Shown here: in pieces, positions 10,204-28,950 of the stretch
Position numbering within the stretch: position 1 is the first letter of the stretch
How the letters are laid out: each line of letters opens with the position of its first letter
Source of the DNA: Planctomycetota bacterium
GTDB taxonomy: Bacteria > Planctomycetota > Phycisphaerae > SM23-33
Length of the DNA stretch: 40,533 nt
Assembly: GCA_034189755.1 (NCBI GenBank)
Contig: JAXIHJ010000104.1
Coordinates: 1-40,533, forward strand
Direction of reading: 5' to 3'
Notes under the pieces: model-generated
Told to the model about the DNA's origin: nothing
The model's input: the letters and a program-made list of their open reading frames with translations, nothing else
The model's database searches: none
Position numbers and translations under genes: made by a program

Positions 10204-10575
10204 ATGGCTGAGAAGAAGAAGCCTTCGACCGACGAAGGAACCAATGTGGAAGATCAGGCACGCGAGCAGACCGGGCAGCAGCAGGTCCGTCTCCGTATCG
10301 ATGAGCGGAACATGAGCAGCTGTTATGCCAATGCCTTTCGCACCAACGGCACGGCCGAGGAGGTCATGCTGGACTTTGGCGTTAATCTGGTCAATCCGGC
10401 ATCGCAGCAGCAGGATAAGCCGGAAATTATTTTCCAGGTCAATCAGCGCGTCATCTTGAACTATTACTCGGCCAAGCGGATGGCGATTACACTCAGCCAG
10501 TTGATTCGCCGTCATGAAGAAGCGTTCGGCGAGCTGGAGATGGACGTTAACAAACGCCGCAAGAGCGGCAAGTAA
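10204..10575 (+). CDS. DUF3467-like small protein
   Basis: aaggag SD. 'YANAFRTNGTAEEVMLDFG...QRVILNYYSAKRMAITLSQLIRRHEEAFGEL' matches the remembered DUF3467 pattern (YsN..i.hs..EF.lDF...R.il.p.hAKrl...L...i..yE..fGei). Confidence 0.6.
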   Translation: MAEKKKPSTDEGTNVEDQAREQTGQQQVRLRIDERNMSSCYANAFRTNGTAEEVMLDFGVNLVNPASQQQDKPEIIFQVNQRVILNYYSAKRMAITLSQLIRRHEEAFGELEMDVNKRRKSGK

Positions 10576-10608: not shown

Positions 10609-12537
10609 ATGTCGACGAAGCCAACGCAGGTTTCTCGGCAGAGGCAGGGCGGCGAATCGCCCACAACAGGTGAGATTGTTGACCGCCTCAGCCGGTTTGA
10701 CGGCCCGCCGGAGCAGTTTCTGGCCACGCTGCTGGCGGTGCAGTGTTATATCTCCGCCGCAGAGGGCGGAACTATTTTGCGGGTCAGCCCCGAGGGGCAG
10801 GTGGAAGTGCTGGCTGTTTACCCCGCCTTGCCCGAGGCGGCGACTGCGCCGGTGTGGCTGGCGCAATCGGTCGAATCGGCCGGGCAGGTTATCCAGGCGG
10901 GCCAGACGAACATCAAGCCGCTCCACAGCGAAGAATCACTCTACGGCGAGCCGGCTCATCATCATCTCGTGATGGTGCCGTTGCGTGGCGGCAGCGGCAT
11001 CCGCGGCCTGGCTGTCTTTATGATTGAAACGCGAGATCAGACCGTTCTTGCCGCCAGCCGGGAACGACTGGAACTTTCGACCAGCCTGCTAAGCCTCTAT
11101 GAGATGCGCCTGACGCTGCAACGCAGGAAGATAGACCTCGAACGGCTGCGAGTGGCGTTGGAAACCCTGTCGGCGGTCAACGAGCAGGATCGCTTCACCG
11201 GTGCGGGCATGGCCCTGTGCAACGAGCTGGCCAGCCGGTTCCAGTGCGACCGGCTAAGCCTCGGCATGTTGAAGGGGCGATACGTCCAGCTAAAGGCGCT
11301 CAGTCATACCGAGAAGTTCAGCCGCAAAATGAAGCTCGTCCAGGACATCGAGGCCGCAATGGAAGAATGTCTCGACCAGGACCTTGAAATCCTTCATCCC
11401 TCGGCTGACGAGGCCCCGTACGTCGCTCGGGCCACCAAAACTCTTGCCACACGCCACGGCCCGGCGACGGTTGTTTCGTTGCCGCTTCGCAAGGGTGGTG
11501 AGCCGATAGGCGTGCTGACGGCGGAGCGCCCGGTGGACCGCCCGTTCAGCCTCGATGAGATCGAGACGCTGCGACTGACCGCGGACCTGAGCACGGCCTG
11601 GCTGGCGAACCTTTTTGAACACGACCGGTGGTTCGGCGCCAGGTTGGCCGGTGCAGCCGGCAAGGGCCTTTCCGTCCTGCTGGGTTCCAAGCACACGTGG
11701 GCCAAGGTCGCAGCCGTTGCCGTCATCGTAGTAGTGTCGTTCCTGGTGTTTGCCAGGGGCGATTACAAGGCCGAGGCGACGTTTGTTGTCCAGGCGGTCC
11801 AGCGGCGGGTCGTTACGGCGCCTTTCGACGGCTATCTCGCCGATGTTTCGGTTGAACCCGGCGAGGTGGTCAAGGCAGGCCAGGAACTGGCCAGGCTGAG
11901 CACGAAGGACCTGCAATTGGAGCTGGACAGCCTAAAGGCCGAACGCGAAGTGTATCTCAAACAGGCTGATACCGCCATGGCCGCCGCCATACTTGATGAG
12001 CAAAAGAGGGCCGAGGGGCAGATCGCCAGGGCACAGGCGGCAAAAGTAGCCGCGCAGATCGAACTGCTGGAGTACCGCAAGCAGCAGGCAACGCTAATGG
12101 CGGCTATCGACGGACGAATTATCGGCGGAGACCTGTCCCGCCAGATCGACACCAAGATTGCCACCGGCGACATGCTGTTCGAAGTGGCGCCGATCGAAAA
12201 CCTTCGTGCGGAGCTGTCCATGCCGGAGGACCAGATCGCCGACGTGGTGGCCGCCATGGACGAGGCCCGAAAGCACGGGCGGGATATCCGCGGCGAACTG
12301 GCCACAGCCGGTGAGCCAGGCCAGCGAATCGAGTTCATCGTCGAGCGGATCAATCCCGTAGCCGAGGTGGTGGACCAGCAGAATGTCTTCAAGGTGCGTG
12401 TCCGCCTGGCGGGGCGGACCGGGCGTATGCTGCCGGGCATGGAAGGCAAGGCGAAGATTCACATCGGCAGGGCCAGTTACGCCTGGCTGTGGACTCGCCG
12501 ACTGGTCAACTGGTTGCGGATGAAGCTCTGGCTCTGA
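10609..12537 (+). CDS. Two GAF-like domains, one TM helix and a HlyD-type membrane fusion domain
   Basis: Two cytoplasmic GAF-like regions ('LVMVPLRGGSGIRGLAVFM', 'VSLPLRKGGEPIGVLTAER'), TM 'VAAVAVIVVVSFLVFA', then 'VVTAPFDGYLADVSVEPGEVVKAGQELARL' plus a long coiled coil. Confidence 0.7.
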   Translation: MSTKPTQVSRQRQGGESPTTGEIVDRLSRFDGPPEQFLATLLAVQCYISAAEGGTILRVSPEGQVEVLAVYPALPEAATAPVWLAQSVESAGQVIQAGQTNIKPLHSEESLYGEPAHHHLVMVPLRGGSGIRGLAVFMIETRDQTVLAASRERLELSTSLLSLYEMRLTLQRRKIDLERLRVALETLSAVNEQDRFTGAGMALCNELASRFQCDRLSLGMLKGRYVQLKALSHTEKFSRKMKLVQDIEAAMEECLDQDLEILHPSADEAPYVARATKTLATRHGPATVVSLPLRKGGEPIGVLTAERPVDRPFSLDEIETLRLTADLSTAWLANLFEHDRWFGARLAGAAGKGLSVLLGSKHTWAKVAAVAVIVVVSFLVFARGDYKAEATFVVQAVQRRVVTAPFDGYLADVSVEPGEVVKAGQELARLSTKDLQLELDSLKAEREVYLKQADTAMAAAILDEQKRAEGQIARAQAAKVAAQIELLEYRKQQATLMAAIDGRIIGGDLSRQIDTKIATGDMLFEVAPIENLRAELSMPEDQIADVVAAMDEARKHGRDIRGELATAGEPGQRIEFIVERINPVAEVVDQQNVFKVRVRLAGRTGRMLPGMEGKAKIHIGRASYAWLWTRRLVNWLRMKLWL

Positions 12538-14724: not shown

Positions 14725-14725
14725 C

Positions 14726-16714
14726 GTGACGGACCTGCCGAGCACAACCTGGCGGATGCTGGCCCAGCGGACGGCGGGTACGGAACTACCTAAGGGCCTC
14801 GATGCCGTATGGGACGGCACCGTGGGGTTTGCCGGGCGGCTTCTGCCGAGGCGGAATCGCTTCCTGCGCCGGGCGGAGCAAATCGTCGCCATGGAGGGGC
14901 AGTTCACCAAGTTGTCGGACGCCCGGCTGCGCGAAGTTGCCGCTGATCTGCGGGCCATATTTCGTTGCGGGCGTGAGACCCAGGTGGAGTTGGACCGTGC
15001 CTTTGCGGTCGTTCGGGAAGTAGCCTGGCGTGAACTTGGCGAAAGGCCGTTTCCGGTGCAGATGGCCGGCGCGCTGGCGATCGAGGCCGGCTGCATCACG
15101 GAGATGGCCACCGGCGAGGGCAAAACCCTGACGGCTACCATGCCTGCCGCGGTGGCGGGCTGGCGAGGCCGGGGCTGCCACGTCATTACCGTCAACGATT
15201 ACCTCGCCAAGCGAGATGCGGAATGGATGAGCAAGGTATATGGCTTTTGCGGGCTGACCGTAGCGCACGTTGCTCAGGGCATGCCGCCGCCGCAGCGCCG
15301 GGAGGCCTACCGGGCGGATATTACTTATGGCACCAATAAGGAGGTAACGGCCGACTTCCTCCGCGACAGGCTGGCGCTGGGCCGGTTGCAGGGATTACCG
15401 GCCGCACTGCTGGCGAAGATCACCGGCGGTTCCGGCAGCGGCACCGACCGCATCGTACAGCGCGGGTTGCAATACGCGATTGTTGACGAGGCCGACTCGG
15501 TCCTGGTGGACGAGGCGGTTACGCCGCTGATTATTTCCGGCCAGGCCCCGAACGCCGAGCAGGTCGAGGCCTTTCAGCAGGCCGCCAGGCTGGCCGGCGA
15601 ACTCAAGCCGCAGCGCCATTACCGCGTGAACCATCGCTACCACGAGGTTGACCTGACCTCGGCCGGAAAGGAATACCTGGCTGAGTTGGCCGCGGAGATG
15701 GGCGGAATATGGGCTGGTGCAAGGCGCCGGGAGGAACTTGTCGTTCAGGCCCTGACAGCCAGGCATTTCTACATGTTGGGAAAGCAGTATGTTGTGGACG
15801 ACGGCAAGGTGGTGATTGTCGATGAATTCACCGGCCGGCTGATGCCCGACAGGGAATGGCGCGACGGGCTGCACCAGGCCGTCGCCGCCAAGGAAGAACT
15901 GGAAATCGAGCTGCCGAAGGATACCTACGCCCGCGTGAGCTTTCAGCGGTTCTTCAGAATGTACCGCAAGCTTGCGGGCATGACCGGCACGGCCACCGAA
16001 GGCCAGGGAGAGTTCTGGCAGATTTACCACCGTCCTACGGTGGTGATTCCCACAAATCGCTCCTGCATTCGTAAGCACTATCCGGACAAGGTCTTCGCCA
16101 CCGCCGAGGCCAAGTGGCGAGCGATCGTGGCCGAGATTAGCCGCTTTCACCAGCAGGGCCGGCCGATCCTGATTGGTACGCGCAGCGTCCGTGCCAGCGA
16201 GCATTTAAGCCGGCTGCTTACCGACGAGAAACTCGAACACCAGGTGCTAAACGCAGTTCGCCACGCCGCCGAGGCACAGATAGTCGCCGGTGCCGGCCAG
16301 CGAGGCAGAATAACGGTGGCGACGAACATGGCCGGACGCGGCACGGACATCAAGCTGGGCCGGGGCGTGGCCAAGTTAGGCGGGTTGCACGTAATCGCCA
16401 CGGAGCGGCACGAAGCCGGGCGCATCGACCGCCAGCTTTTCGGCCGGTCCGCACGCCAGGGCGACCCCGGCAGCGCACAGGCCATAGTGAGCCTGGAAGA
16501 TGAACTGGTTCTCCGCCACGCGCCCCATCTGGCGGGGCTGCTCCGCAAGCGGCTTGGGGGGCGAGATGGCGAAATCTCCTCACCGGTCAGCCGGAAGGTG
16601 TTTGATATTGCCCAACGCCGGGCCGAGCGGCTTGCGCTGCGGCAACGAAAGGCCGTCTTGAGGACCGATGACTGGTTGGACGAATACCTCGGATTCGCCG
16701 GCAGTGAGCGGTAA
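14726..16714 (+). CDS. SecA-like DEAD-motor ATPase paralog, C-terminally truncated (662 aa)
   Basis: GTG start 1 nt after the upstream stop. Walker A 'MATGEGKTLTATMPA', Walker B 'IVDEADSVLVDEAVTPLIISG', PPXD 'YVVDDGKVVIVDEFTGR', and NBD2 'LAGMTGTA', 'ATNMAGRGTDIKLG', 'GGLHVIATERHEAGRIDRQLFGRSARQGDPGS'. It ends about 90 aa after this motif. Confidence 0.85.
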   Translation: MTDLPSTTWRMLAQRTAGTELPKGLDAVWDGTVGFAGRLLPRRNRFLRRAEQIVAMEGQFTKLSDARLREVAADLRAIFRCGRETQVELDRAFAVVREVAWRELGERPFPVQMAGALAIEAGCITEMATGEGKTLTATMPAAVAGWRGRGCHVITVNDYLAKRDAEWMSKVYGFCGLTVAHVAQGMPPPQRREAYRADITYGTNKEVTADFLRDRLALGRLQGLPAALLAKITGGSGSGTDRIVQRGLQYAIVDEADSVLVDEAVTPLIISGQAPNAEQVEAFQQAARLAGELKPQRHYRVNHRYHEVDLTSAGKEYLAELAAEMGGIWAGARRREELVVQALTARHFYMLGKQYVVDDGKVVIVDEFTGRLMPDREWRDGLHQAVAAKEELEIELPKDTYARVSFQRFFRMYRKLAGMTGTATEGQGEFWQIYHRPTVVIPTNRSCIRKHYPDKVFATAEAKWRAIVAEISRFHQQGRPILIGTRSVRASEHLSRLLTDEKLEHQVLNAVRHAAEAQIVAGAGQRGRITVATNMAGRGTDIKLGRGVAKLGGLHVIATERHEAGRIDRQLFGRSARQGDPGSAQAIVSLEDELVLRHAPHLAGLLRKRLGGRDGEISSPVSRKVFDIAQRRAERLALRQRKAVLRTDDWLDEYLGFAGSER

Positions 16715-16936
16715 CACCGTAGCCGGCTTGCCCGGAAGTTGGCGAACCGGAAATACGAAAAACGCTTGACTATGGTTTGGTGGCCGGATACGTTGCAAAG
16801 TGGCGATAATACCCTGGTAAGGCCGACGTGCCGACGTGCCGATGAGCCTAAACCAGGCTGGAGTATATGTGATATTGCTTAAGTGAACCTTTGCGGAGTG
16901 GCTCAGAGCTTTGCCGTGAAGGGAAGGAGTGCCTAG

Positions 16937-19900
16937 ATGTCTATTCCTGCCGAGAGTCCCCCCGAGAACCTCTTGCCCCAGTTCGAAAGCCTCGAACAAA
17001 GACTGCTGCTGACAACGCTGATGGGCGGAGAGTTTTTCATCTACCTAAACAGCCAGGGTGAAGCGGTCCGCGTCGATTTGGACGTCGGGGCGACGGAAGA
17101 CTCCGAGGACGCCATCGTGGAGTTGTTCACCTACGACGACAATTGGGGCGGCGTGCACGACCTGGTCGGCATTCCCGGTGACGATACCGCCGGCCTGCGG
17201 ATTAACGACCAGCAGCAATGGGGCGACGGTGTCGAAGACATCGTCGAATACGACGTCGAGAATGGCACGTGGTCGTGGATCAACTACGAAAAGGACGAGT
17301 TCGGCAATGACAGCATTCGCGGCGCCGAGACGGAGATCTTCTCGATCTACATAGCGATGTGCACACCCGATACGGTGCTGACCATATCGACGCTGACCTC
17401 TTCGGACATTCCCGAAAGTGCAGCCGGCTGGCCCGCCTGGTATAACGATATCAATACCTGGGATTCGACGACCCTGCCGCTGCTGGCCGTTATCGCACAT
17501 GATCCGGTGAATGTCTTTGCGCCGGCCGGCTCCGGTGGCGTGATCGTTGGGACGCAGCGTTCGCCCGAGGCCGGTGTCGACGGCGACAAGCTGCGGCACA
17601 TTGCCGTGGCCAACGCCGACCCGGAAACCGGCCTGTCCAACATGGGCTGGTTCCCCGGCGGAAACCTGGCGCCCGGCGTTTCGGTATTCGGCGAACCGTT
17701 CCAGATGATCAACCTGCCGGTCGGCTCCGACGTTCATTCCATCGCATCCGACTCCGCCGGCAATATGTTCGTGGTGGACCTCAGCGCCTTTCAGGGTGTC
17801 ATCGTCAACGACGATCCCGGCGGGGAGGGATTTCTGGGCGAGGACGTCAGCTCGCTTGCGTCCGATTCGGCCGGGACGTTCTATGCGGTGGACAATGCAC
17901 TGACGCCCCTTATCAACAGCCCGACCAATAGTAACATCGGGGCCAACATAACGGGCATCACGGCCGGCGATGCAGGGCTGTTCTACGCCGTTGATGAGGA
18001 GACCCACCATTTGCTTTCATGGTCGGTGGCCGACGGGCTTACCGACATCGGCGAACTGATCGACGCCAACCAGAGCCAGTACCGCTACGAAGGTGTTTGC
18101 GGGCTTGATTACAATTCGAGCAGCAGCCTGATGTATGCGATCGGGTTTGTAGTGGACACCGACCCGGCTGTTGCGCCGGATGCGCCCGATCCGAGCGGCC
18201 CGTTCCTGATTACCATTGATGTAACCAATGCACAGGTTACCAGCAGGATGCTGATAAACGACGGCAACGGCACGTTTACCGCGATGGCTTTCGATCCCGC
18301 CGGAACCTGCTTCGCCGTCAACGGGGCGACCAACGAGCTGGTTACCATAGACCCGGCCGACGGCGCTATTACGGTCGTGGGCACGTTGCTGGACGGTGCG
18401 ACTTCCGTTACGGGTGTCGTTGGCATCGACTTCCTCGGCCAGGACATGTACGCCGTTACCGGCGACCACTTGTATCGAGTGAGCCCCGCAACCGCCGCGT
18501 GCACGGACCGCGGCGCAGTGGCGCTACCTGCCGACATGGGCTCGCTGGCTTATGACCCGACCCGGCCCGGCTCGCTTTACACGGCTGTCGATATCGGCAC
18601 GAACGAGTATCGCTTCTGTCGCATCCCGCTGGGCGCTTCGCTGGTCTGGGCCGACGTTGACGGTGTGTCGACGCTTATTGACGTGCTGGTTGATTCTACG
18701 GAAGACACGTGGGTCTGGCAGAACGTCTACGCGCTGGATTACAACAACGGTGACGGCCTGCTGTACGGGGTCGGCACGGCCGTCGATCTGGACACCCAGG
18801 ACGCCGGCGTTCCACCGGCGGGCCGGCGGCTGATTACAATCGACCCGGTGACCGGCCTGGTTACCGACGTCGGCGCGCTGACAGGTGCGGCCGACGTGCA
18901 AAGCCTCGTCTTCGATGGCGGCGGCACGCTCTACGGCCTGGACGCCACCACCGACGAGCTGTACGACATCAACCCGGCTACGGGCGCCGGTGTGTTGGCG
19001 GCTACAGTGGATGTTTCCAATCTGGAGGGTATCGAGTTTGTCAACATCGGCGCAAACGAGGTCCTGTACGGCGTTACGGCCGACGAGCTGTACGTCTTTG
19101 ACCTCAACCTTGGTGCGGGCACTGCCACCGGAACGCTTCTGGGCGACACCGGCCAGACTACGCTGAGTTCGCTGGCATTCGACGGCAGTGGCAGCCAGGA
19201 CAACATACTGTGGTCCACCGCCAGTGACGGCACGAACTTTTACCTGACGCGCGTAGACCTGTCCAGCGTGCTGGTTGCACTGAACGGCTGGAATCCCGTT
19301 ACGCGGCAGGCGCTGCTGTTCGACGCGGCTGAGCCTGCATACGCCTATGTCGGCATTCACGCACTGGAATTCGGGCCGGGGGACGTGCTCTACGGTGTCG
19401 GCACTATCGTCAACCTCGACCCCGGCAATGTAGCTGACCCGGCCTCGTTTGGCCCGTACCTGATTACCATTGATACGACCACAGGCCTGGTTACCCAGGT
19501 GGTTCCGGGTACGCCGCTTGTAACGGACCTGTCCTCGCTGGCATACGACGCCACCGCCACGTGGTACGGCGTTGTGCCCGACGTTGCGGGCGACCAACTG
19601 GTGACGGTGAACATGGCCACCTCGGCGACGACTCTGGTCGGCGTGCTCACCGCCGCCGCTGCGCTGACTGGCGTAACGGGCCTGGACTTTGAAGACGGTT
19701 CGCTCTATGCGGTAACGGACGATTCACTTTACGAAGTGGATGCGGCCACGGCTGTGTGCACGCTGTCCGGCCTGACGCCGTTTACCGGCCTGAGCAGCCT
19801 GACCGGCGACGAGACGGATACGCAGCAACTGTGGTCCACGGCGCTGTTCGGCGACGAGTATTACCTCGTCAGCCTGGCGACCGACGCCGAAGCGGGGATC

Positions 19901-22900
19901 CAGGACATCGGGCGCGTAATCATGGCCGGCACACTTGCCGGCGCGTTCACCACCGACGGCAACGTTGAAGTAATCGAGATGGGGTTCCTGTTCGGCAACG
20001 TGCTGGTCGGGCACAATCTGGATACACTCATTGCCCGCGTCGGCGGTGGGGCGGTGCCGGTTCCGGCGCCGACAAATTTCGTAACCCCCGACGAAAGCAG
20101 GATATGGGCCGGCGGCGTCATCACCGGCGTTTACAGCCGCTCTGAAACGCTGTATTCGGCAATCGAGGCCGACAACGACCTGACAATTGCGGATCCCGAC
20201 ACGCTGATCATGGAACACGAGGTCCGCGTCGCCGCTGACGCCCACGACGCCGCCTGGCTGGCCGGCGACCTGGTGGACCACTACAACGACTCGATGGAAA
20301 CAGCCCAGTTCCTGAATCACCCGTCGGGCGACTTCACACTGTTCGGTTCTTTTCCGTCGGATCCGTACGATTCCCTTGAGGACTGGTACGCACTGCCACT
20401 GATGGCCGGCCAGACCATCGTCATGGACGGCATGGTTATTAGTTGCGCCGCCTACCTGTACGACTGGGACGGCAACTGGATGGACAGCTTCGGCTTTGAG
20501 ACCATCGAGGACGAGGGCCTCGCCTCGATTGGTCAACAGATCAAGCCAATGACTTTCACCGCCCCGTCAGCGGGTGTCTACTACCTGATGTTGTATGATT
20601 TAGAACCGCGAGGCGGCGCCTATTTACTGAACTTTACCAACGGCCCAGCGGCGGCGCTGGGTGGCGTCAGTGTCGTCGGCGACTATTACGGTATGTTTAC
20701 GGGCACCGGCTCGGCCGCGGACAAGGGAGCCAACATCGCCGCCAAGTGGGGCGGCGACCTAGGCGGCGTCGTGATTACAGGCAGCAGCTACTACACGGTC
20801 GCCTACGCCGCCTACGGCGGAAACCTGGTAGCCTTCCAGGCCGGCGAAATTGGGACGCTCATTGACGGGACCTACACCACCAACACGATTATCTCCGACA
20901 GCAACATCGGGCGGGTAGCCTCAACGTCGGGCTTCCTCGACGCCAACATCCTCGCAGGCAGCAATTTCTACAACCCCAATGCGTACATCCAGAACATCTA
21001 CGCCGCCACCGACTACATTTTCGCAAACGCCATCATGGCCACGGGCAGCATCGGCGTAATCGAGATCGAAAACGATTTGCAGTATGGCGTACTTATCTCA
21101 GTCAACAGCAACGATACGAATTATACCCCGGGGATGGGGTCGCGGCTGGACCTGCTTGACATCGGCGGCGATTATCACTGCTACGGTGGGGCGATGCTTT
21201 CCCATGGTCCCGGCGGCGACATTGGGTTTGTCTACGTCGGCGGGACTATACTCGTCGATTACGGCGATTGGATCGGTGCGGTTACGGAGGAGCTTTATGA
21301 GAATGGCGAGACCTCCATTCTCAACGACGACGGCGGCGGTCGGACGACCGTTTTGCCCGTCGAAACCACTTTGCTGGATGAAAACGGCGCCCCGGTGCTG
21401 GATGAAAACGGCGACGAAGTTACCTACACGCCGACCTATTCCTTTTGCTACATACCCGTCGACGACGTGATGGGCGGCGTGGGCGGCGTGGTCGCCAATT
21501 TCCGGGTCAACGGCTCGGCCGTGTTTAATACCACCGGTGTGGTCCAGGTTTCCTCGCTGGACATTTCCGATTGGAGGCCGGGCGGCGGCGGCGACCCCTA
21601 TACCAGCCTGACCTTCGCAGGCGGCGAGACAAACATCTACTATCTCCACGACCACCACACCCATCCGGACTATGCGGCCCGGACGCTCGACATCCATATA
21701 GATGGGAATCTGGTTTCAGCGAACCTCGGCCAGGGCGGATGGGGCGCATCATCAAGCGCGGTGTCCAGAGATACGACCGTGGCAAACCCGTATCCGGTGG
21801 ATCAGCTCGATATTGAAAAATTGACGGTTACGGGCGATCTCGGCGCCCAGACGGGCACCACGGGCGCCTGGCTGCACGGCTGGGACGATGCAGAGGTCAT
21901 CCCGGATGTGGACGACGGCTCGGATGCGGATACCGTCGCCCAATACTATCAGGAGGCCCAATACGGCTGGTTCCACGGCAAGCACAACGGCGTGCAGATA
22001 TGGGGCAATCTGGAGAATCTGAGGGTCAATGGTTCTCTGGGTGACATGCGCGTCAAGAACAACCCACGTATCGATGCCGCATTGGCGTTTACCGGCCGAA
22101 TCGGCACCGTTCGCGTCAATGCGGACAACTACACAGCCGCCGGAGATTGGGACGGTATCTGTGGGATTCTCTGGGCCAGGAGGCGGATCGACGAGGCTTA
22201 CGTCGGCGACGGCCTGGCCGACGACGGCGGGGCGGATGTGGCGCGGGCGGCCATTATGTCCGGCTACAGTATCGGCAGGGTCGAGGTCAACGGGCCTTAC
22301 TTCGTGGTGGACGGCCAGGCCTACCATGAGCTGAACGGCTCGATCATCGGCTTCAGCAATGACATCGGCACAACCTTTGATGAGGCGGGCAACCCGGTTG
22401 TAACGACCTATCACGGCGTCGGCCAGGTTATAGGCCTCAACGGCGCGCGGATGACGGCCAACGTCGTCGGCATGAACCTGCTAACGTTCCGCTGCTACGG
22501 TGCGCCCTACGCCGCCGCCGCCGGCATCGGCACGGTAAGCTTCTCCGGCGTGGGCGCTGAGATCGAAGGCTCGGAAATTACCGGCGATTACGTTCAGAAG
22601 GTCTACACCAGCATTAACTCCAATGGCATCAGCAACTCGCACATTTCCGGCCATGACCCGGTATCGGGCGAATATGCTGTCGGCGAGGTAATCGGCGGCG
22701 GGCCTGGCATGAACCGCGTTTTCGTCAGCGTTACCGGCAGCGACATCGGTACTGTCAAGGGCCTCGGCGCCAATGCCGACATCCTTAGCAGCGTATTCGT
22801 TTCCACCGCCGGCATGCATTACATCGGGGCCAAGGACCTGTACGAAAACGGCATCCACATGCCCGGCACCGTCGGAACGATGAACGCCACGCACGACATG

Positions 22901-25900
22901 ATCTCGAATACGGTCATGGTCGGTGCGGTCGACCAGATTAAGGTCAGCAATGATTTCGAGCTTAACAGCTTTACCGTCGCCGGCAAGATCGGCCCGATGG
23001 ACATTGGCGGGGCCTTTATCGACTCCTATCTGTCTCTACAGGGTCCGTCGATTGCCAACCTGAAGTCGCTGGTGGTCAACGGCGATATTTCGGGCGAGAT
23101 TGTCTGTGCCGGCAAGATCGGGCAGATTATTTCCCGCAACGGCGGCATCAGCGCCGATATAAGCACAATCGTCGCCGAATGGGACGGCGACATTAACTTG
23201 ATCCAGACGGCAGAGGGTTTTACCGGCAAGCTGTACGTGTCCGGTTCGATGGGCCGGTTCATCTCAGGCCTTTCGCTGGGCGAGAGTCCCGCCCAAACGG
23301 GCGAGACCCAAACGTTCGACATCCTTGGCGACCTGAACTACCTGAAGGTCGGCAGCAGGTCGGTGTCGGCCCATCTGTACGCCGGCATCAACGTCGGCGG
23401 CGACGTCGGCACGATGGATATCAGCGGCACGCTCTACGCCAATGTCATGATCAACGGCAGCATGAAATCGCTGATCGTCGGGGGGCAGATGGGCGGCCTG
23501 TTGAACTTCACAGAGAACTGGACTGGCGCCGATGGGAACGCGTGGCCCGGCGTATGGACTTTCAATGGCGATATCGACCAGTTAGCCAGTCAGGACATTC
23601 AGAGCAATCGCGGCCGAGTGGCGGGCGATGTCGCGGCGGCGGGGACGGTGATGGCATACACCAGGCATCATGCCAGGAGCGTCGACCAGTCGGTCCTGTT
23701 TAACATCAGCGCCGACGGTATGGGCTTTGGCTTGATCGCCCGCCGGTCGGACACCGCTGAGGATACGTACTATCTCGCACGGGTGGTCAGCGGCGGCGCA
23801 GTGGGCGATTCCCTGCGAATCTACAAGGTCGTCGGCGGCGTGGAGACCGAACTGGCCGACACCGGGCTTTTGTACGACGCAGCCGGCACCGATTTCATGC
23901 TGCGGTTCGCCTGCACGAAGCAAGGTTCCAATACGCTGTTGCAGGTGAAGATGTGGGATGCGTCCGTGGCGGAACCGGCGGCATGGTCGGCGGAGGTTAC
24001 CGACAATGAAGCCGCTCTTCAGGGCGTCCGTGGCCGGTTCGGCCTGTACTACGGCCTGTCGGACGTGATCGAGGCGCTGATCGACAACTATACCGCCGAT
24101 TTCTCCCGTGGCCGTCTGACCGTCATGGGCAAGCTCAATTCGATGAAGTTTCCGACGACCGGCGACCTGTTCGCCGACTTGGCTATCGGCGGGTCAATCA
24201 AGAGGCTCAACCTCACCGGCGGCAGCATACTCGGCGACCTCACCAGCCGATATGGTGCGATCGAGGGAATCAACCTCAACGGCGGTTCCGTCATTGGAAA
24301 TGTTACGGCCGTTTCGATAGGCAACATCTCTATCCGCAACGGCAACGTAATGGGCGACGTTACCGCTACCGACGGCAATATCAAGTCGTTGAGCGTTACC
24401 GGCGGCAATCTGGATGCTGAGGTTACGGCCCGGAACGGCCGAATCCAGCGTCTCTCCGTCAACACCGGTGATATCCTGCCTGGCCATACCATCGAAGCCG
24501 AGGCCGGCTTTGGGACCGTTTCCATTCGCAACGGCGACCTGCTCAGCGACCTTATCTCCGGCCGGAACATCAAGTCGCTGACCATCCGAGGCAGCGATAT
24601 AGGCTCTGCGCTTAATCCCGTCATGATCAGCGCCGAAACCGGCATCGACAGGGTTCAGACGGACGGGGCCGTGGTAAACTCCGTCATACGGTCGGGCAGC
24701 AAAATCGGCCAACTCAACGTGAACAGCGTGCAAGATTCGATTATTTCAGCCGGCTGGCATATTGGCAGCGCCAGGATAGGGACCAACGTAACCGGCTCGC
24801 ACATTCTGGCAGGCTACGACGTCGGGCCTGACGGGGCGGTCGGTGGCGGCGACGACGTGGCGCACTCCGGCGACTTTAAGAGCCTGGACGTCGGCGGCAA
24901 CTTCAACACTTCGGTCGCCGCAGCCGGCATCGACCCAGGCGCCAGCGACGACTTTACAAACCTTGCCGACAACACCGACAACAACGGCGTCAGCAGCATT
25001 TTACGGGCAAACGTCCGGGGCGCCGCAGTCGGTAGCTTCATCCAGGCCGACACGTATATCGACCCGAACGCACCGGCCGGCGCCGTGGTGCCCGTCAAGA
25101 ACGACCCTGTCGTGGCTCCAGGCGGCAGTGTGGACTTCGGCCCGGAGACAGCCAACAACACGCTGACCATAGGCAACCTGACATTGACGCTGACGGGGGC
25201 CGGACTGGGCAGCTATCACGCCGCGACCAACACGCTGTACCTGAACCGCACGACCACCAGAAGCAATTTGAGGCTCGACAACACCGGTGCGAATATCGAC
25301 ATCACCGTTGTCGGCGCCGAAGATGCCGAGCTAAGCGGCTTGCAGACCAGTGGGGCCGTAACCCTGGCCGACACGACCGTCCACGGCGCCATCAAGAGAC
25401 TTACCGCCGCCAACATTGCTAACGGAGCCGTGTGGAACCTGTATGGCGGCATCGGGTCGGCTTCGCTGGGCGGCATGACCAACGTAAACGCCACCACCGG
25501 CGAGCTTGGCACGTGGAGGATGGACGCGTTGACCGGCGGGTTCCTGACTGCCGACGCGATCAAGGGTTTCTTTGCAGCCGGCTCGGTTACCGGCAACCTA
25601 ACGGCGCTGCTGGGCAACGCCAGGATTGACATACGCGGCGGCGACCTGAACGGCGACGTGACGATTCTCGGCACGGCAACCGGCTTGGCGGTCAGCGGCG
25701 CCGTTACCGGCGTTGTGAACGTTACCAACGGCGACTTGCAGACGTTCCGGGCCGGTTCACTGTCCGGCAGGGTCGAGGCCGCCCTTGGCCTGAGCAGAAC
25801 GGTAACCATCACGGGTGCCTTTAGCGGCAGCTATCGAACTGGAATGGGCATCGGCCGATTTGCCTCTGACACATTCTCAGGCCTGCTGAGCACCAGCGGG

Positions 25901-27637
25901 GACCTGACAAGTTTTTCGGTCCGAAACGCCATGACCGGTCAGGCCCGCTCCGGCGGCAGCATTCGAACCGCATCGTTCGGCTCGATGAACGGCGCGCTGG
26001 TAACCGCAGCCGCTGACTTCCAGAACGCGCGAATTACCGGCGACATGCTCAACAGTTGGCTCTTTGCCGGGTTCGACCCGGGCGACGCAGGGTACGACCC
26101 CGTTACGTTTGAAGACGGCAACGTTGCAATCGACGCCTGGGACGCTCCGCTCGTGGCGGCACAGCAGGACAGCCCGCTTGGCGGAAGCTTCCGGTCGGTG
26201 CGAATCGGCGGGGACATGACCGACAGCACGATTTCGGCCGCCGTTGATCCGGGTGTCGACGGCTACTGCGGCACGCCGGACGACGTCGTTTCCGGCATCG
26301 GCTACGTCAACCTGGTCAGGGTTAGCGGAGCCATTTCTGGCACCTCAGGCGGCAACCGCTCCTACGGTGTCATTGCAGCCAGCGAGATGCCGACCGTCTA
26401 CTATCAGCGAAGTTACCCGTTTGTTTCCAGCGGCAGCGCGCAAGTCGGCACGATGTGGTCGGCAGCCGGCAATCTGACCGTTATCGACGTAAATGTGCTG
26501 TATAACTCGCTCACCATCTACTTCGATCATCCGGTGAATACAAGCACGCTCGGAACCGTCTATACCGGCATGGTTCCGGAGTCGTTCACGCTGTTGGTCT
26601 CCGTCGATGACATTTTCGATCCGGCCACGGACACGGTTATCTCGGCAGTAACCCCGCACACGCTGGTCTATGACACCGTAAATTGCAGCGTAACGATGAC
26701 CTTGAGCTTTGGGGCGAGCTGGCAGACGCTGGGTCTCGGGAACCACTACCAGTTGACGCTGGACGGCGCGGTCGTCGCCGACAACCGTGGTTTCCTGCTG
26801 GACGGCGAGTACGAAGGGACCTTCCCGAGCGGCGACGGCGAGCCGGGCGGCGATTTCGTCTACGAATTTACCATCGGGCAGACCGTGCTGAGCAGCGTAC
26901 CGTCATACGAATGGTGGTTCGGCTGTGCCCCAACCGCCGCCGGCATGCTTGCCGGGTACTACGATGGCCTGGGCTACGGCAACCTGATCGTGGGCGACGC
27001 ATCCACGCAAACAGACGAGGTCAATGAAGCCATCGCCAGTTCGGGCGACGGCACCTACTTCTGCGATTCATCCGGCTATCATGAAATGCCCGGAACCGTC
27101 CACGCCACAGTCGGTACCGGACACATCGGTGATTACGCCATCTACGACGGGATCGACGATTCTGGCGGCCTGGCTTATCCGGATATGTCCAGCGTCGATC
27201 CAGGCGGCGCCCATGTGGACGATTGCCTGGCCGACTTTATGTATACTTCCTTCAGCTCCGAAGGTCTGACCATGGGTGGGAGTCTGTCGCCTGACATCGG
27301 CCCGGGCGTGGAAGCCTTTTTCGCTTACAAGGGCTACACAGCCAATTCGTCGGACCTGGTCTTCGGCGTATTTGGCTGGGACGATCTTATTGTGGAGATT
27401 GACAACGACCGGCCGGTCTTGCTGGGCGTCGATGCGGGAGGCACCGGGGGTATGAACCATGCTGTCGTCGCAGTCGGCTACGACACGATCACGAACCAGT
27501 ATGCATGCTACAACACATGGACCGTGGACGATCCGCTAACACCGGCGAATGAAGCACTGCAATGGTACGACTTCAACGGCGTCGCACCCGGTCAGGACTT
27601 TGGTATCGGTATGGCCATCACTGTCGTGGTACCCTGA
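16937..27637 (+). CDS. Giant (3566 aa) acidic, Gly/Asp/Thr/Val-rich multidomain surface/secreted-type protein
   Basis: A single uninterrupted ORF with an AAGGAG SD 7 nt upstream. The internal domains are listed as separate features. Confidence 0.9.
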   Translation: MSIPAESPPENLLPQFESLEQRLLLTTLMGGEFFIYLNSQGEAVRVDLDVGATEDSEDAIVELFTYDDNWGGVHDLVGIPGDDTAGLRINDQQQWGDGVEDIVEYDVENGTWSWINYEKDEFGNDSIRGAETEIFSIYIAMCTPDTVLTISTLTSSDIPESAAGWPAWYNDINTWDSTTLPLLAVIAHDPVNVFAPAGSGGVIVGTQRSPEAGVDGDKLRHIAVANADPETGLSNMGWFPGGNLAPGVSVFGEPFQMINLPVGSDVHSIASDSAGNMFVVDLSAFQGVIVNDDPGGEGFLGEDVSSLASDSAGTFYAVDNALTPLINSPTNSNIGANITGITAGDAGLFYAVDEETHHLLSWSVADGLTDIGELIDANQSQYRYEGVCGLDYNSSSSLMYAIGFVVDTDPAVAPDAPDPSGPFLITIDVTNAQVTSRMLINDGNGTFTAMAFDPAGTCFAVNGATNELVTIDPADGAITVVGTLLDGATSVTGVVGIDFLGQDMYAVTGDHLYRVSPATAACTDRGAVALPADMGSLAYDPTRPGSLYTAVDIGTNEYRFCRIPLGASLVWADVDGVSTLIDVLVDSTEDTWVWQNVYALDYNNGDGLLYGVGTAVDLDTQDAGVPPAGRRLITIDPVTGLVTDVGALTGAADVQSLVFDGGGTLYGLDATTDELYDINPATGAGVLAATVDVSNLEGIEFVNIGANEVLYGVTADELYVFDLNLGAGTATGTLLGDTGQTTLSSLAFDGSGSQDNILWSTASDGTNFYLTRVDLSSVLVALNGWNPVTRQALLFDAAEPAYAYVGIHALEFGPGDVLYGVGTIVNLDPGNVADPASFGPYLITIDTTTGLVTQVVPGTPLVTDLSSLAYDATATWYGVVPDVAGDQLVTVNMATSATTLVGVLTAAAALTGVTGLDFEDGSLYAVTDDSLYEVDAATAVCTLSGLTPFTGLSSLTGDETDTQQLWSTALFGDEYYLVSLATDAEAGIQDIGRVIMAGTLAGAFTTDGNVEVIEMGFLFGNVLVGHNLDTLIARVGGGAVPVPAPTNFVTPDESRIWAGGVITGVYSRSETLYSAIEADNDLTIADPDTLIMEHEVRVAADAHDAAWLAGDLVDHYNDSMETAQFLNHPSGDFTLFGSFPSDPYDSLEDWYALPLMAGQTIVMDGMVISCAAYLYDWDGNWMDSFGFETIEDEGLASIGQQIKPMTFTAPSAGVYYLMLYDLEPRGGAYLLNFTNGPAAALGGVSVVGDYYGMFTGTGSAADKGANIAAKWGGDLGGVVITGSSYYTVAYAAYGGNLVAFQAGEIGTLIDGTYTTNTIISDSNIGRVASTSGFLDANILAGSNFYNPNAYIQNIYAATDYIFANAIMATGSIGVIEIENDLQYGVLISVNSNDTNYTPGMGSRLDLLDIGGDYHCYGGAMLSHGPGGDIGFVYVGGTILVDYGDWIGAVTEELYENGETSILNDDGGGRTTVLPVETTLLDENGAPVLDENGDEVTYTPTYSFCYIPVDDVMGGVGGVVANFRVNGSAVFNTTGVVQVSSLDISDWRPGGGGDPYTSLTFAGGETNIYYLHDHHTHPDYAARTLDIHIDGNLVSANLGQGGWGASSSAVSRDTTVANPYPVDQLDIEKLTVTGDLGAQTGTTGAWLHGWDDAEVIPDVDDGSDADTVAQYYQEAQYGWFHGKHNGVQIWGNLENLRVNGSLGDMRVKNNPRIDAALAFTGRIGTVRVNADNYTAAGDWDGICGILWARRRIDEAYVGDGLADDGGADVARAAIMSGYSIGRVEVNGPYFVVDGQAYHELNGSIIGFSNDIGTTFDEAGNPVVTTYHGVGQVIGLNGARMTANVVGMNLLTFRCYGAPYAAAAGIGTVSFSGVGAEIEGSEITGDYVQKVYTSINSNGISNSHISGHDPVSGEYAVGEVIGGGPGMNRVFVSVTGSDIGTVKGLGANADILSSVFVSTAGMHYIGAKDLYENGIHMPGTVGTMNATHDMISNTVMVGAVDQIKVSNDFELNSFTVAGKIGPMDIGGAFIDSYLSLQGPSIANLKSLVVNGDISGEIVCAGKIGQIISRNGGISADISTIVAEWDGDINLIQTAEGFTGKLYVSGSMGRFISGLSLGESPAQTGETQTFDILGDLNYLKVGSRSVSAHLYAGINVGGDVGTMDISGTLYANVMINGSMKSLIVGGQMGGLLNFTENWTGADGNAWPGVWTFNGDIDQLASQDIQSNRGRVAGDVAAAGTVMAYTRHHARSVDQSVLFNISADGMGFGLIARRSDTAEDTYYLARVVSGGAVGDSLRIYKVVGGVETELADTGLLYDAAGTDFMLRFACTKQGSNTLLQVKMWDASVAEPAAWSAEVTDNEAALQGVRGRFGLYYGLSDVIEALIDNYTADFSRGRLTVMGKLNSMKFPTTGDLFADLAIGGSIKRLNLTGGSILGDLTSRYGAIEGINLNGGSVIGNVTAVSIGNISIRNGNVMGDVTATDGNIKSLSVTGGNLDAEVTARNGRIQRLSVNTGDILPGHTIEAEAGFGTVSIRNGDLLSDLISGRNIKSLTIRGSDIGSALNPVMISAETGIDRVQTDGAVVNSVIRSGSKIGQLNVNSVQDSIISAGWHIGSARIGTNVTGSHILAGYDVGPDGAVGGGDDVAHSGDFKSLDVGGNFNTSVAAAGIDPGASDDFTNLADNTDNNGVSSILRANVRGAAVGSFIQADTYIDPNAPAGAVVPVKNDPVVAPGGSVDFGPETANNTLTIGNLTLTLTGAGLGSYHAATNTLYLNRTTTRSNLRLDNTGANIDITVVGAEDAELSGLQTSGAVTLADTTVHGAIKRLTAANIANGAVWNLYGGIGSASLGGMTNVNATTGELGTWRMDALTGGFLTADAIKGFFAAGSVTGNLTALLGNARIDIRGGDLNGDVTILGTATGLAVSGAVTGVVNVTNGDLQTFRAGSLSGRVEAALGLSRTVTITGAFSGSYRTGMGIGRFASDTFSGLLSTSGDLTSFSVRNAMTGQARSGGSIRTASFGSMNGALVTAAADFQNARITGDMLNSWLFAGFDPGDAGYDPVTFEDGNVAIDAWDAPLVAAQQDSPLGGSFRSVRIGGDMTDSTISAAVDPGVDGYCGTPDDVVSGIGYVNLVRVSGAISGTSGGNRSYGVIAASEMPTVYYQRSYPFVSSGSAQVGTMWSAAGNLTVIDVNVLYNSLTIYFDHPVNTSTLGTVYTGMVPESFTLLVSVDDIFDPATDTVISAVTPHTLVYDTVNCSVTMTLSFGASWQTLGLGNHYQLTLDGAVVADNRGFLLDGEYEGTFPSGDGEPGGDFVYEFTIGQTVLSSVPSYEWWFGCAPTAAGMLAGYYDGLGYGNLIVGDASTQTDEVNEAIASSGDGTYFCDSSGYHEMPGTVHATVGTGHIGDYAIYDGIDDSGGLAYPDMSSVDPGGAHVDDCLADFMYTSFSSEGLTMGGSLSPDIGPGVEAFFAYKGYTANSSDLVFGVFGWDDLIVEIDNDRPVLLGVDAGGTGGMNHAVVAVGYDTITNQYACYNTWTVDDPLTPANEALQWYDFNGVAPGQDFGIGMAITVVVP
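16982..17017 (+). other. N-terminal 'FESLEQRLLLTT' motif of the giant protein
   Basis: Residues 16-27. It resembles the LExRxLL motif I recall near N-termini of large planctomycetal extracellular proteins. There is no basic n-region or clear hydrophobic signal peptide. Confidence 0.5.
18050..19990 (+). other. Three tandem 210-aa modules of beta-propeller-type blades in the giant protein
   Basis: Anchor motifs GLDY (18101), ALDY (18731) and ALEF (19361) are exactly 630 nt apart. Each module has four blades, with signatures such as LYGVG..., LITID(P/T)xTGLVT and LY(A/G)V(T)xDxLYxVD. Confidence 0.6.
20297..20643 (+). other. Pre-peptidase C-terminal (PPC)-like domain in the giant protein
   Basis: 'SLEDWYALPLMAGQTIVMDG...AYLYDWDGNWMDS...FTAPSAGVYYLMLYD...YLLNF' fits the DWY...aGqt...lyd.dG...aGtYyi.V pattern. 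Confidence 0.55.
23504..24066 (+). other. Concanavalin-A/LamG-like lectin-fold domain in the giant protein
   Basis: 'GFGLIARRSDTAEDTYYLARV...LRIYKVVGGVETELA...FMLRFACTKQGSNTLLQVKMWD...GRFGLYY' is typical of LamG/DUF1080-type jelly rolls. Confidence 0.5.
24188..24812 (+). repeat. About 10 tandem 19-22-aa coils of a parallel beta-helix-like repeat in the giant protein
   Basis: IKRLNLTGGSILGDLTSRYGA / IEGINLNGGSVIGNVTAVS / IGNISIRNGNVMGDVTATDGN / IKSLSVTGGNLDAEVTARNGR / IQRLSVNTGDIL... Similar coils recur at 22.7-23.5 kb and 25.3-26.0 kb. Confidence 0.6.
26890..27634 (+). other. C-terminal papain-fold (C39/C10-like) cysteine peptidase domain of the giant protein
   Basis: 'YEWWFGCAPTAAGMLAGYY' (Cys codon 26924-26926, residue 3330) and 'GGMNHAVVAVGYD' (His codon 27458-27460, residue 3508), followed by 'CYNTW'. 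Confidence 0.6.
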
Positions 27638-27789: not shown

Positions 27790-28530
27790 ATGGCCGACCT
27801 TACGAACAATAAGATTGTCGGGCGTATCCTTATTATTGTGCCGGCCTGCGACGAGGCCCAATCCATTGCCGCGGTGATGGCCGACCTCCGCGCGCACCTG
27901 CCGGCTGCCGACGTGGTGGTCGTGGATGACGGTTCCACGGACGGAACGGCTGACGTCGCCCGGCGGCACGGGGCGGCGGTGCTTCGGCTGCCTTGCAATC
28001 TCGGCGTCGGCGGCGCGATGCAAACCGGCTACATGTACGCCCGGACCAAGGATTACGACGTAGCCGTACAGTTCGACGGCGACGCCCAGCACAGGGCCAA
28101 CCAGATTTCAGCGATTCTGGACGCCGTCGCCGGCGGGGCGGACCTTGCCGTCGGCAGCCGCCTGTTGGGGGGGATGCGATTTCGCTTCCATCCATTCCGG
28201 TTTCTGGGCAGCCGGCTGCTTGCCGCCTTGGTCTCGCTGATTGTTCGCCAAAAAATTACCGATCCCACCAGCGGGTTCCGGGCCGCCTCACGACGGGCCG
28301 TGGCCTTCTTCGCCGAGCATTATCCGCAGACCTATCTCGCCGATACCACCGAGGCCCTGGTCTGGGCCGGCAGGGGGGGGCTGAAGCTGACGGAGGTTCC
28401 CGTCCGCATGCGCCAGCGACAGGCCGGATCGGCCGCCAGCGGCAATATCAAGGGCGTGGCCCACATGGTGAGAATCATACTCGCGCTGCTTATAGACTGC
28501 TTTGAATCGCGTATCAAACCACAGGAGTAA
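27790..28530 (+). CDS. Family 2 glycosyltransferase (polyprenol-phosphate sugar synthase, GtrB/DPM1-like)
   Basis: 'ILIIVPACDEAQSI', 'VVVVDDGSTDGT', 'VQFDGDAQH' and 'DPTSGFRA'. Confidence 0.85.
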   Translation: MADLTNNKIVGRILIIVPACDEAQSIAAVMADLRAHLPAADVVVVDDGSTDGTADVARRHGAAVLRLPCNLGVGGAMQTGYMYARTKDYDVAVQFDGDAQHRANQISAILDAVAGGADLAVGSRLLGGMRFRFHPFRFLGSRLLAALVSLIVRQKITDPTSGFRAASRRAVAFFAEHYPQTYLADTTEALVWAGRGGLKLTEVPVRMRQRQAGSAASGNIKGVAHMVRIILALLIDCFESRIKPQE

Positions 28531-28535
28531 CATCC

Positions 28536-28949: not shown

Positions 28950-28950
28950 G

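Follow-up and report, generated by a model that had tools for sequence, protein, structure and literature searches.

How would a giant protein without a classical signal peptide leave a bacterial cell? This question is raised by a 40,533-nt stretch of DNA from a Planctomycetota bacterium of the Phycisphaerae lineage SM23-33 (GenBank assembly GCA_034189755.1, contig JAXIHJ010000104.1, positions 1 to 40,533; hereafter the window), in which an open reading frame (ORF) of 3,566 codons lies 222 nt downstream of a gene for a SecA-like ATPase. A preliminary description of the locus had reported this ORF and its spacing, both of which the sequence confirms, and had proposed that an LExRxLL-type motif at the N-terminus of the giant protein is the targeting signal for the machinery encoded upstream. 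Proteins tagged with this motif, known as LEPR-XLL, and a module built around a fusion of an RRE domain, an M50-type metalloprotease and a HlyD-type adaptor are genetically linked in two phyla. Judging from gene neighbourhood and domain anatomy, we consider it reasonably probable that the giant is the cargo of the adjoining module and that the LEPR-XLL-type motif is its leader or address; we hold it likely that the giant leaves the cell by way of the module, regardless of what the motif does.

The start codon of the giant gene is fixed by an in-frame TAG at 16934-16936 that abuts the ATG, so that no longer N-terminus is possible, and a Shine-Dalgarno-like site (GGGAAGGAG) is located at 16921-16929, 7 nt 5′ of the ATG. 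The protein begins with MSIPAESPPENLLPQFESLEQRLLLTT, containing one basic and four acidic residues among its first 30, no K or R before the motif within a net acidic stretch, no RR pair of the twin-arginine (Tat) type within its first 60 residues and, as its longest hydrophobic run, LLLTTLMGG, which is not followed by AxA. By this simple reading of charge and hydropathy, a crude analysis that agrees with the earlier statement that a classical signal peptide is missing, the N-terminus appears neither Sec- nor Tat-like. A 19-residue hydropathy window with a threshold of 1.6 revealed no convincing transmembrane (TM) segment along the giant, the best value being 1.63 at aa 900-918. The composition is rich in Gly (13.5%), Asp (8.5%) and also Thr and poor in Lys (0.9%) and Cys (0.5%), and no GGxGxD repeats of the RTX type were found over the entire protein. 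In the 222-nt gap 5′ of the gene no terminator-like site was found; a short direct repeat (gccgacgtgccgacgtgccga) occupies 16820-16846 of this gap.

A six-frame translation of the window contains no second L[ED]xRxLL at an N-terminus. Against the 24-position NCBIfam model LEPR-XLL (NF012209), aa 15-25 align to model positions 2-12 with E = 0.016, a near miss of the curated cut-off of 17 bits (Table 1). A HMMER search with aa 1-330 against 1.84 billion cluster representatives returned 52 matches including the window protein itself, 19 of them at E <= 1e-30 and ~25 being full-length giants; the full-length homologues span 2,800-4,029 aa. The motif was present in 44 of the 49 other matches, nearly always at residue 16-22, in the pattern of 15-21 residues followed by [FLIV]ExLExRLLLTTxxGGxxFxYxNSxGxxVR, and the five without it were N-terminally cut fragments or matches confined to downstream regions. 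Because the stretch before the motif varies among these homologues from acidic to strongly basic, with 0 to 6 K/R, the window protein is an ordinary member of its giant family.

The preliminary description regarded the motif as having no assigned function, which needs correction, as a 2004 study put forward RRLxxExLExRxLLA as a putative new signal for the export of surface proteins in R. baltica (Studholme et al. 2004, as cited in PMC8567305), and NCBIfam has the LEPR-XLL model. The giant shares with that signal and with NF012209 the ExLExRLLL core (FESLEQRLLL) at the extreme N-terminus of a very large surface-type protein without a hydrophobic core, and differs in having Q for P, TT for A/S and no basic or RR stretch before the core. 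A search with the form LxLExLExRxxP found the signal on 52 T. immobilis proteins, among them 8 of the 10 longest (PMC8567305). LEPR-XLL domains also occur on a ~8,000-aa Vibrio protein, with Vibrio LEPR-XLL giants having C-terminal RTX domains, and on Chlorochromatium proteins of 36,806 and 20,647 aa; a 2026 preprint describes the Chlorochromatium LEPRxLL giants as lacking known transport signals and, in Chl. chlorochromatii, as flanked by SapC and TolC genes, with one secA reported as recently acquired. A literature search for machinery assigned to the ExLExRxLL signal found none.

The operon that precedes the giant gene (Table 1) is a member of a module described by Kamneva, Poudel and Ward in 2015 (PMC4452313), in which a secondary SecA_DEAD protein without wing and scaffold is accompanied by M50/HlyD, GAF-HlyD and HlyD proteins and sometimes by OEP and SapC. 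Gene set and order, the wing- and scaffold-less SecA-like protein, the M50 protein with TM helices and HlyD, and the GAF-HlyD protein all agree, the optional OEP and SapC genes being missing from the window. That study recorded the module in Planctomycetes (R. baltica RB142-146, Phycisphaera mikurensis and others), Verrucomicrobia, many Proteobacteria, Nitrospirae and Chlorobi, noted SapC as a recurrent neighbour and proposed a machine resembling the type I secretion system (T1SS) with SecA_DEAD as ATPase and M50 as a possible pore; it named no cargo and called the biological role completely unknown. The PqqD/RRE domain and DUF3467 are not named there, and the LEPR-XLL link is added here. Motif and module also co-occur in R. 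baltica, the species in which the signal was defined (PMC4452313), as one would expect from the pairing suggested in the preliminary description. Both the motif (2004, NCBIfam) and the module (2015) were thus known separately, and the link between them is drawn here, a search of the literature for such a link having found none.

Table 1. Features of the giant gene and of the operon upstream of it, in window coordinates.
Feature	Position	Strand	Basis and remarks
HlyD1 membrane-fusion (periplasmic adaptor) protein, 305 aa	9262..10179	+	Pfam HlyD_D23, HlyD_3, Biotin_lipoyl_2; NCBIfam RND_mfp 112.9 bits, above cut-off
DUF3467 protein, 123 aa, soluble	10204..10575	+	Pfam PF11950, E = 1.4e-17; conserved accessory gene
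GAF-MFP (membrane-fusion protein): GAF domain, one TM segment (aa 364-382), HlyD-type adaptor	10609..12537	+	Pfam GAF, HlyD_3/HlyD_D23; TM prediction
RRE(PqqD)-M50/site-2-protease-like-MFP fusion, 723 aa	12553..14724	+	Pfam PqqD aa 39-103; NCBIfam daptide_HExxH; AlphaFold2 (AF2) model
Truncated SecA-like ATPase, 662 aa: nucleotide-binding domain (NBD) 1, preprotein cross-linking domain (PPXD), NBD2, start of scaffold helix	14726..16714	+	Pfam SecA_DEAD, SecA_PP_bind, P-loop_SecA
Gap between SecA-like gene and giant gene	16715..16936		222 nt, read directly
Giant protein gene	16937..27637	+	3566 aa, 370 kDa, isoelectric point (pI) 4.05; proposed cargo
LEPR-XLL-type motif QFESLEQRLLL, aa 15-25	16979..17011	+	NF012209 14.8 bits; own motif hidden Markov model (HMM) E = 4e-6; proposed leader/targeting element
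Conserved domain after the motif (TTLxGGEFFIYxNSxGExVR...), aa 26-330	17012..17926	+	No Pfam match
Three ~210-aa repeat units, aa ~360-990	18014..19906	+	Internal BLAST repeats; DUF6923/DUF4394
Putative papain-like (Peptidase_C39_2-like) C-terminal domain, aa ~3320-3566	26894..27634	+	PF13529 sub-threshold, Cys/His pair

The M50 fusion matches the daptide HExxH model (NF041824) over aa 20-410 with 167 bits, below the cut-off of 300, contains the invariant motifs HEFGH (211-215) and NPLLRYDG (~313-320) and has predicted TM helices. Its AF2 model (mean confidence score pLDDT 83) comprises an RRE-like N-domain of three strands and three helices, a membrane core made of helices, and at the C-terminus an adaptor that includes an alpha-hairpin; the best Foldseek matches of this adaptor are MacA, MexA, AcrA and EmrA (E 1e-11 to 1e-9). 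We propose that this fusion recognizes and cleaves a leader and acts as the inner-membrane adaptor. The SecA-like protein aligns to residues 19-607 of B. subtilis SecA only, so that wing domain, two-helix finger and C-terminal tail are missing; its Pfam matches also include a weak DEAD and no wing or scaffold family, and all NCBIfam SecA/SecA2 models score below their cut-offs, the SecA2 models reaching 451-581 bits against cut-offs of 725-1100.

Among the remaining components, HlyD1 has an N-terminal anchor in a hydrophobic segment at aa 12-30, and the domain order of GAF-MFP places the GAF domain presumably in the cytoplasm and the adaptor in the periplasm. GAF-MFP occurs in nearly every related locus, the contig being cut wherever it is absent. 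DUF3467 is present in many planctomycete loci and had no match by sequence to solved structures. As a candidate SecB-like chaperone, DUF3467 gave no structure match, and hhalign against an approximate E. coli SecB sequence gave nothing, so that this role is neither supported nor excluded. The genes of the operon are separated by 16-34 nt or overlap, too close for a small precursor-peptide gene to fit between them, and none of the annotated window genes was found to encode a peptide-modifying enzyme. Neither the operon nor the other annotated window ORFs include an ABC transporter (ABC_tran), SecY2, Asp1-3 and SapC are likewise missing among the annotated window ORFs, and the remaining scanned ORFs encode housekeeping proteins or have no Pfam match.

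To place the pairing of giant and module in a wider frame, homologues of the M50 fusion were collected, of which there are more than 7,600 close ones, with relatives in at least 467 species genomes. Eighty planctomycete loci fetched with flanks, together with locus L002, made 81 (L001 being dropped as a duplicate of L009) and 82 sequences with the window. The core order of GAF-adaptor, fusion and SecA-like gene is conserved wherever the contig reaches, the full order being HlyD1-DUF3467-GAF/HlyD-M50/HlyD-SecA-like, and a TolC-like lipoprotein gene stands beside the module in 19 of the 82 sequences, usually as a HlyD1-TolC pair on the opposite strand. Our motif HMM was applied to the 2,259 stop-to-stop ORFs with 150 or more codons in the window and the 81 loci and gave 20 matches at E <= 3e-4, with the next best at E > 1. 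Of these 20 tagged ORFs, 16 have their motif start within 1 kb of a module gene, a zone that holds only 20% of the non-module bases (binomial p = 1.3e-8), and the remaining four are separated from the module by one gene at most; at the density in T. immobilis (52 proteins, PMC8567305; with an assumed genome size) about one start within 1 kb would be expected. A test that assumes uniform positions on raw cluster bounds, and does not count HlyD1-TolC pairs lying beyond an insertion, gives p = 9e-4, the figure above being calculated per module component. NF012209 also matches 18 of 19 module-linked N-termini at E <= 1, the best at E = 7e-7.

Behind their N-termini, the LEPR-tagged neighbours have unrelated bodies with Ig, fn3, cadherin, CARDB, LamG or CAP domains, and they stand in at least four arrangements relative to the module, namely 3′ of the SecA-like gene, divergent from the HlyD1-TolC pair, upstream of the module, and divergent from GAF-MFP. 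Members of the giant's own family are found directly upstream of HlyD1 in L006, L008 and L080 and 3′ of the SecA-like gene in L016, L047 and L063. Adjacency has thus been kept through rearrangement, which argues for selection and not inheritance alone.

The reverse test started from five full-length giant homologues chosen irrespective of the module; the contigs of the homologues identified through the C-terminus end short of the 5′ side of the gene and were not usable for this purpose. In L090 the SecA-like gene is followed by a co-directional giant gene, in L089 the giant is convergent with the SecA-like gene, L092 shows no SecA-like gene on the visible side of the giant, and in L088 and L091 the giant is unlinked. 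The L088 orthologue (3,306 aa, in the region 10001-23619 of this locus; metagenome-assembled genome GCA_030592655.1) has polysaccharide-synthesis genes 5′ and genes for an ATPase of the type II secretion system (T2SS) kind (MshEN/T2SSE), T2SSF and a pseudopilin 3′, the module of this genome being on another contig (L032).

The same pairing recurs in a second phylum. A tblastn search of 72,556 plasmids with the M50 fusion yielded 13 full-length alphaproteobacterial homologues with 32-37% identity, and in all eight plasmid or chromid neighbourhoods inspected a giant gene ends right before the module. Six of these upstream giants are fully visible, with lengths of 4,000-12,900 aa, and all six visible N-termini carry the motif. 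Those of Pseudosulfitobacter (12.9k aa), Pontibrevibacter (10.6k aa, in an operonic arrangement in which the stop of one gene overlaps the start of the next) and Thalassospira (4.0k aa) are named LEPR-XLL domain-containing proteins by NCBI PGAP, and those of Methylosinus (8.8k aa, ...FDTLEPRVLLNAD), Mesorhizobium ciceri (10.5k aa, ...HFEALEPRLLLSAD) and Alisedimentitalea (8.1k aa, ...VVEQLEPRLLLAAD, 51 codons upstream of the annotated start) have ...LEPR[LV]LL... at their true N-terminus. For Rhodobacteraceae M382 (ORF > 4,238 aa) and Ensifer adhaerens (ORF > 3,359 aa) the N-terminus lies beyond the fetched stretch. A SecA-like orthologue with 44-49% identity is present in seven of the eight modules and DUF3467 in four of the eight, and DUF3467, an extra adaptor, TolC and SapC are recurrent.

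Public annotation obscures several of these genes (L093/L097, NZ_CP123586.1; L094, L095, L096, L101). The SecA-like orthologues are variously labelled SecA, DEAD/DEAH helicase or 'prepilin peptidase', tagged giants are called 'calcium-binding', 'LamG-like' or 'Ig-like' instead of LEPR-XLL, and the annotated start in Alisedimentitalea, 51 codons too far downstream, strips the LEPRLLL tag. SapC recurs with the module in Proteobacteria (L094 17263-18084; PMC4452313 S2 Table) and beside the Chlorochromatium LEPRxLL giants (Cag_662); none was seen in the window or the planctomycete loci, where DUF3467 is the small accessory gene, and the roles of SapC and DUF3467 may be analogous.

A more distant variant is located on an E. 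coli IncF plasmid (NZ_CP081687.1, 44829-64580; L104/L105), where an Ig-like protein of 4,459 aa that starts ...RFALESRQLFDGAA is encoded ahead of TolC, two adaptor genes and a distantly related M50-adaptor fusion; neither a SecA-like nor an ABC gene is present. This 4,459-aa Ig-like protein is carried by IncFIA/FIB plasmids of both E. coli and Citrobacter, and its N-terminus (MTTIKNRRLRPRAHRFALESRQLFDGAA) resembles the LEPR-XLL tag; the locus could serve as a tractable model of the pathway. Since this locus and that of Thalassospira lack a SecA-like gene, the M50-adaptor fusion rather than the SecA-like protein is suggested to be the constant partner of the tag, and the SecA-like motor may be dispensable or encoded elsewhere.

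Taking these observations together, we propose that the module is a tripartite, type-I-like, envelope-spanning exporter in which the ABC transporter has been replaced. Its parts would be the polytopic M50 protein with an N-terminal RRE domain and a C-terminal adaptor, a SecA-like motor, two further adaptors of which one bears a GAF domain, DUF3467 and a TolC-like outer-membrane factor, the truncated SecA-like ATPase having kept the motor and the preprotein clamp without the parts that dock to SecY. The RRE domain would bind the FExLExRLLL leader of the unfolded, acidic giant, and the SecA-like motor would then feed the chain, N-terminus first, into the M50/adaptor assembly, where the metalloprotease may remove or process the leader. 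The duct of adaptors and TolC would carry the chain over the periplasm and the outer membrane, and once outside the giant could fold, yielding a surface or extracellular protein that is rich in repeats and ends in a papain-like peptidase domain. We infer all of these steps, and each later one is held with less confidence than the assignment of cargo and leader itself.

The proposed exporter resembles several known systems in part. With type I secretion and the peptidase-containing ABC exporters (PCATs; HlyBD-TolC, CvaAB-TolC) it shares membrane-fusion adaptors and a TolC-like channel, and type I cargo is likewise a giant that is unfolded, acidic, rich in Gly/Asp, poor in Cys and devoid of a Sec signal. 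The built-in protease of PCATs recognizes and cuts an N-terminal leader, parallel to what we propose here. By contrast, the module has no ABC transporter, uses a SecA-like ATPase and carries M50 plus RRE instead of a C39 protease, and compared with T1SS the signal would be N-terminal rather than C-terminal and RTX repeats are missing. In these terms, the system is a variant among tripartite type-I-like exporters in which the motor differs, an RRE-protease is built in and the leader is N-terminal.

Accessory Sec systems (SecA2-SecY2 with serine-rich repeat adhesins, and SecA2-only systems) similarly link a dedicated SecA paralogue to a giant adhesin-like protein with an atypical N-terminal signal, whereas the window has no SecY2 or Asp genes among its annotated ORFs, and without wing, two-helix finger and C-terminal tail its SecA-like protein is unlikely to engage SecY as ordinary SecA does. 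The RRE-containing intramembrane leader peptidases of ribosomally synthesized and post-translationally modified peptides (RiPPs; daptide NF041824, YydH/LiaK NF058609) have the same succession of a PqqD-like domain and a HExxH intramembrane metalloprotease; they differ in that the window protein scores below their cut-offs, its M50 part is fused to an adaptor, its partners are a SecA-like protein and adaptors, and its presumed substrate is a 370-kDa protein. Giant proteins of Omnitrophota (bioRxiv 10.1101/2023.11.21.568195) also combine a SecA motor and preprotein-binding domains without scaffold or wing, giant size and C39-like peptidase domains, and their SecA_DEAD was suggested to serve export of the giant itself. 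There, however, the SecA-like domain is inside the giant beside TM anchors, whereas the window encodes it as a 662-aa protein of its own within an adaptor/M50 operon.

Several points weigh against taking the giant as cargo and the motif as its leader. The entire support consists of gene neighbourhood and domain anatomy, so that the targeting role put forward in the preliminary description gains a strong linkage with the module in two phyla and is still read from the position of genes. The loci are mutually related and represent ~10 independent lineages or events, not 20, which weakens the statistics while, by our estimate, leaving them significant. About 70% of the planctomycete loci have no adjacent LEPR gene, many of their contigs being short, and the giant orthologues of L088 and L091 are unlinked to the module. 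The motif of the giant itself falls under the NF012209 cut-off and lacks the basic stretch that precedes it in many relatives. The Thalassospira and E. coli plasmid loci combine an M50-adaptor module and a LEPR-type giant without a SecA-like gene, the annotated window ORFs include no TolC-like/OEP gene, and sequence comparison pointed to no fold for DUF3467. RTX C-termini on Vibrio LEPR-XLL giants imply that the motif may not be the export signal in some lineages.

This last point leads to the alternative that survives best, although we regard it as unlikely, namely that the module does export the giant while the motif is an element for processing, retention or anchoring, comparable to the LapA-type N-terminal retention module cut by a dedicated protease. 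In that case the giant would be released or matured by the RRE-M50 protein and would have its export signal in another place, such as the C-terminus, as in T1SS. The module does contain a protease, proteobacterial LEPR-XLL giants may have C-terminal RTX/serralysin regions or an annotation as 'calcium-binding protein', and the conserved C-terminus common to many members of the giant family (...GxxDTxxLLxWL[SAK]) is a possible second signal. However, C-termini across the family are not uniform, being C39-like, WL-ending or F5/8-type C, and the window giant contains no GGxGxD; its papain-like C-terminus stays compatible with a C-terminal signal of a non-RTX type. In addition, there is no ABC transporter to read a C-terminal signal, and the N-terminal motif is the only feature common to the otherwise unrelated neighbours of the module, which favours the motif as the address.

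It is improbable, more so than the foregoing, that the giant belongs structurally to the cell-surface portion of the apparatus, or to a fibre assembled by it, with the motif docking to the adaptor/TolC duct instead of acting in cytoplasmic targeting. The operonic arrangement with overlapping stop and start in Pontibrevibacter would fit such a part, whereas the linked proteins are highly diverse, ranging from ~400 to 12,900 aa with varied domains, and the 52 signal-bearing proteins of T. immobilis (LxLExLExRxxP form) fit a shared cargo signal better.

Least probable of all is a module for RiPP-like peptide maturation and export or regulator-controlled efflux that is unrelated to the giant, the latter using Sec with an atypical signal and then, for example, T2SS, and adjacency being inherited synteny: among named families the M50 part is indeed closest to RiPP leader peptidases (daptide and YydH/LiaK models) and follows a PqqD-like N-domain, one giant orthologue adjoins T2SS E/F and pseudopilin genes, and the Arg-preceded LLLTTLMGG weakly recalls a short h-region, but this hydrophobic run is too short and the stretch before it acidic, LEPR proteins that are not homologous adjoin the module in several gene orders and two phyla, for which inherited synteny is inadequate, and the lack of precursor and modification genes in or near the operon, together with the cargo linkage, led us to reject RiPP export as the main explanation.

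Under the preferred reading, in which the giant is cargo and the motif its leader, a proposed export signal without a machine (2004) and a module without a known cargo (2015) are joined by neighbourhood evidence into a genetically testable hypothesis. The window is one more instance of the pairing of module and LEPR protein, and its value lies in the assignment of a cargo to a machine. In a wider sense, the LEPR-XLL leader and the RRE-M50-adaptor fusion, usually accompanied by the SecA-like protein, extra adaptors, DUF3467 or SapC and a TolC-like protein, may constitute a distinct and widespread secretion pathway for giant proteins in Planctomycetota, Pseudomonadota, Chlorobiota and others, independent of ABC transporters, driven by an N-terminal leader and using leader recognition derived from RiPP systems, in effect a new type of secretion system; we consider the case for and against this generalization evenly balanced. 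If true, it would explain how megadalton adhesin- or toxin-like proteins exit without Sec or ABC exporters and how a peptide-recognition RRE domain was reused for protein targeting, and it would benefit the annotation of genomes and provide a leader with its exporter for secreting very large recombinant proteins. Tractable hosts carrying the module or a variant include Methylobacterium extorquens AM1, Ruegeria pomeroyi, rhizobia and E. coli with the IncF plasmid variant.

For the body and C-terminus of the giant, the preliminary description had listed propeller modules, PPC-like, LamG-like and beta-helix domains and a peptidase. Pfam analysis of the segment aa 251-1000 identified DUF6923 (E = 7e-13) and DUF4394 (E = 1.7e-10), both above cut-off, and the three repeat units that match them are possibly propeller-like. 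An hmmscan of the entire 3,566-aa protein returned Peptidase_C39_2 as the sole family, sub-threshold, and missed DUF6923 and DUF4394, which emerge only on the segment scan; whole-protein scans of giant repetitive proteins can hide real domains. PPC-like and LamG-like domains had no Pfam support even at E <= 5, a beta-helix is represented by an insignificant Bactofilin match, weak periodicity and a short repeat pattern of ~19-20 residues on reading, and a sequence comparison of the giant with the PDB gave no match. Of the listed domains, propeller-like repeats and a papain/C39-like C-terminus are thus partly supported, and PPC, LamG and beta-helix are left without support from the tools.

At the C-terminus, PF13529 scores 19.1 bits against a cut-off of 24. 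The C-terminal 576 aa have nine homologues, five of which carry a precomputed PF13529 assignment, and the putative catalytic residues Cys3330 (WFGCAPT) and His3508 (NHAVVAVGYD) are kept in nine and eight, respectively, of ten aligned sequences. The AF2 model of these 576 aa was poor (pLDDT 57) and, with scattered weak papain-like Foldseek matches and none at E <= 0.001, was not used as evidence for the fold. Many members of the giant family have no C39-like end (P0134, P0136, P0140, P0141, P0150, P0151, P0152, P0163). An alternative conserved ending in the family is ...(E)F.[VI]G..D....LL.WL[SAKT], which could be a second sorting signal, and others end in F5/8-type C or Reprolysin-like domains. 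From this variety it follows that the C-terminal 'head' is swapped on a common N-terminal and central scaffold.

Directly 3′ of the giant gene and on the same strand, genes for a family-2 glycosyltransferase and a PMT_2/ArnT-like membrane glycosyltransferase are located at window positions 27790-30591, and a family-2 glycosyltransferase gene likewise stands 3′ of a giant homologue in L085; glycosylation of the giant or of the envelope by these enzymes is possible. Calpain-like Peptidase_C2 proteins are encoded near the module or the giant in L002 (1061-4747) and L089 (1279-3411), and the L002 protein has a LEPR-type N-terminus (FEQMEPRLLLSAS).

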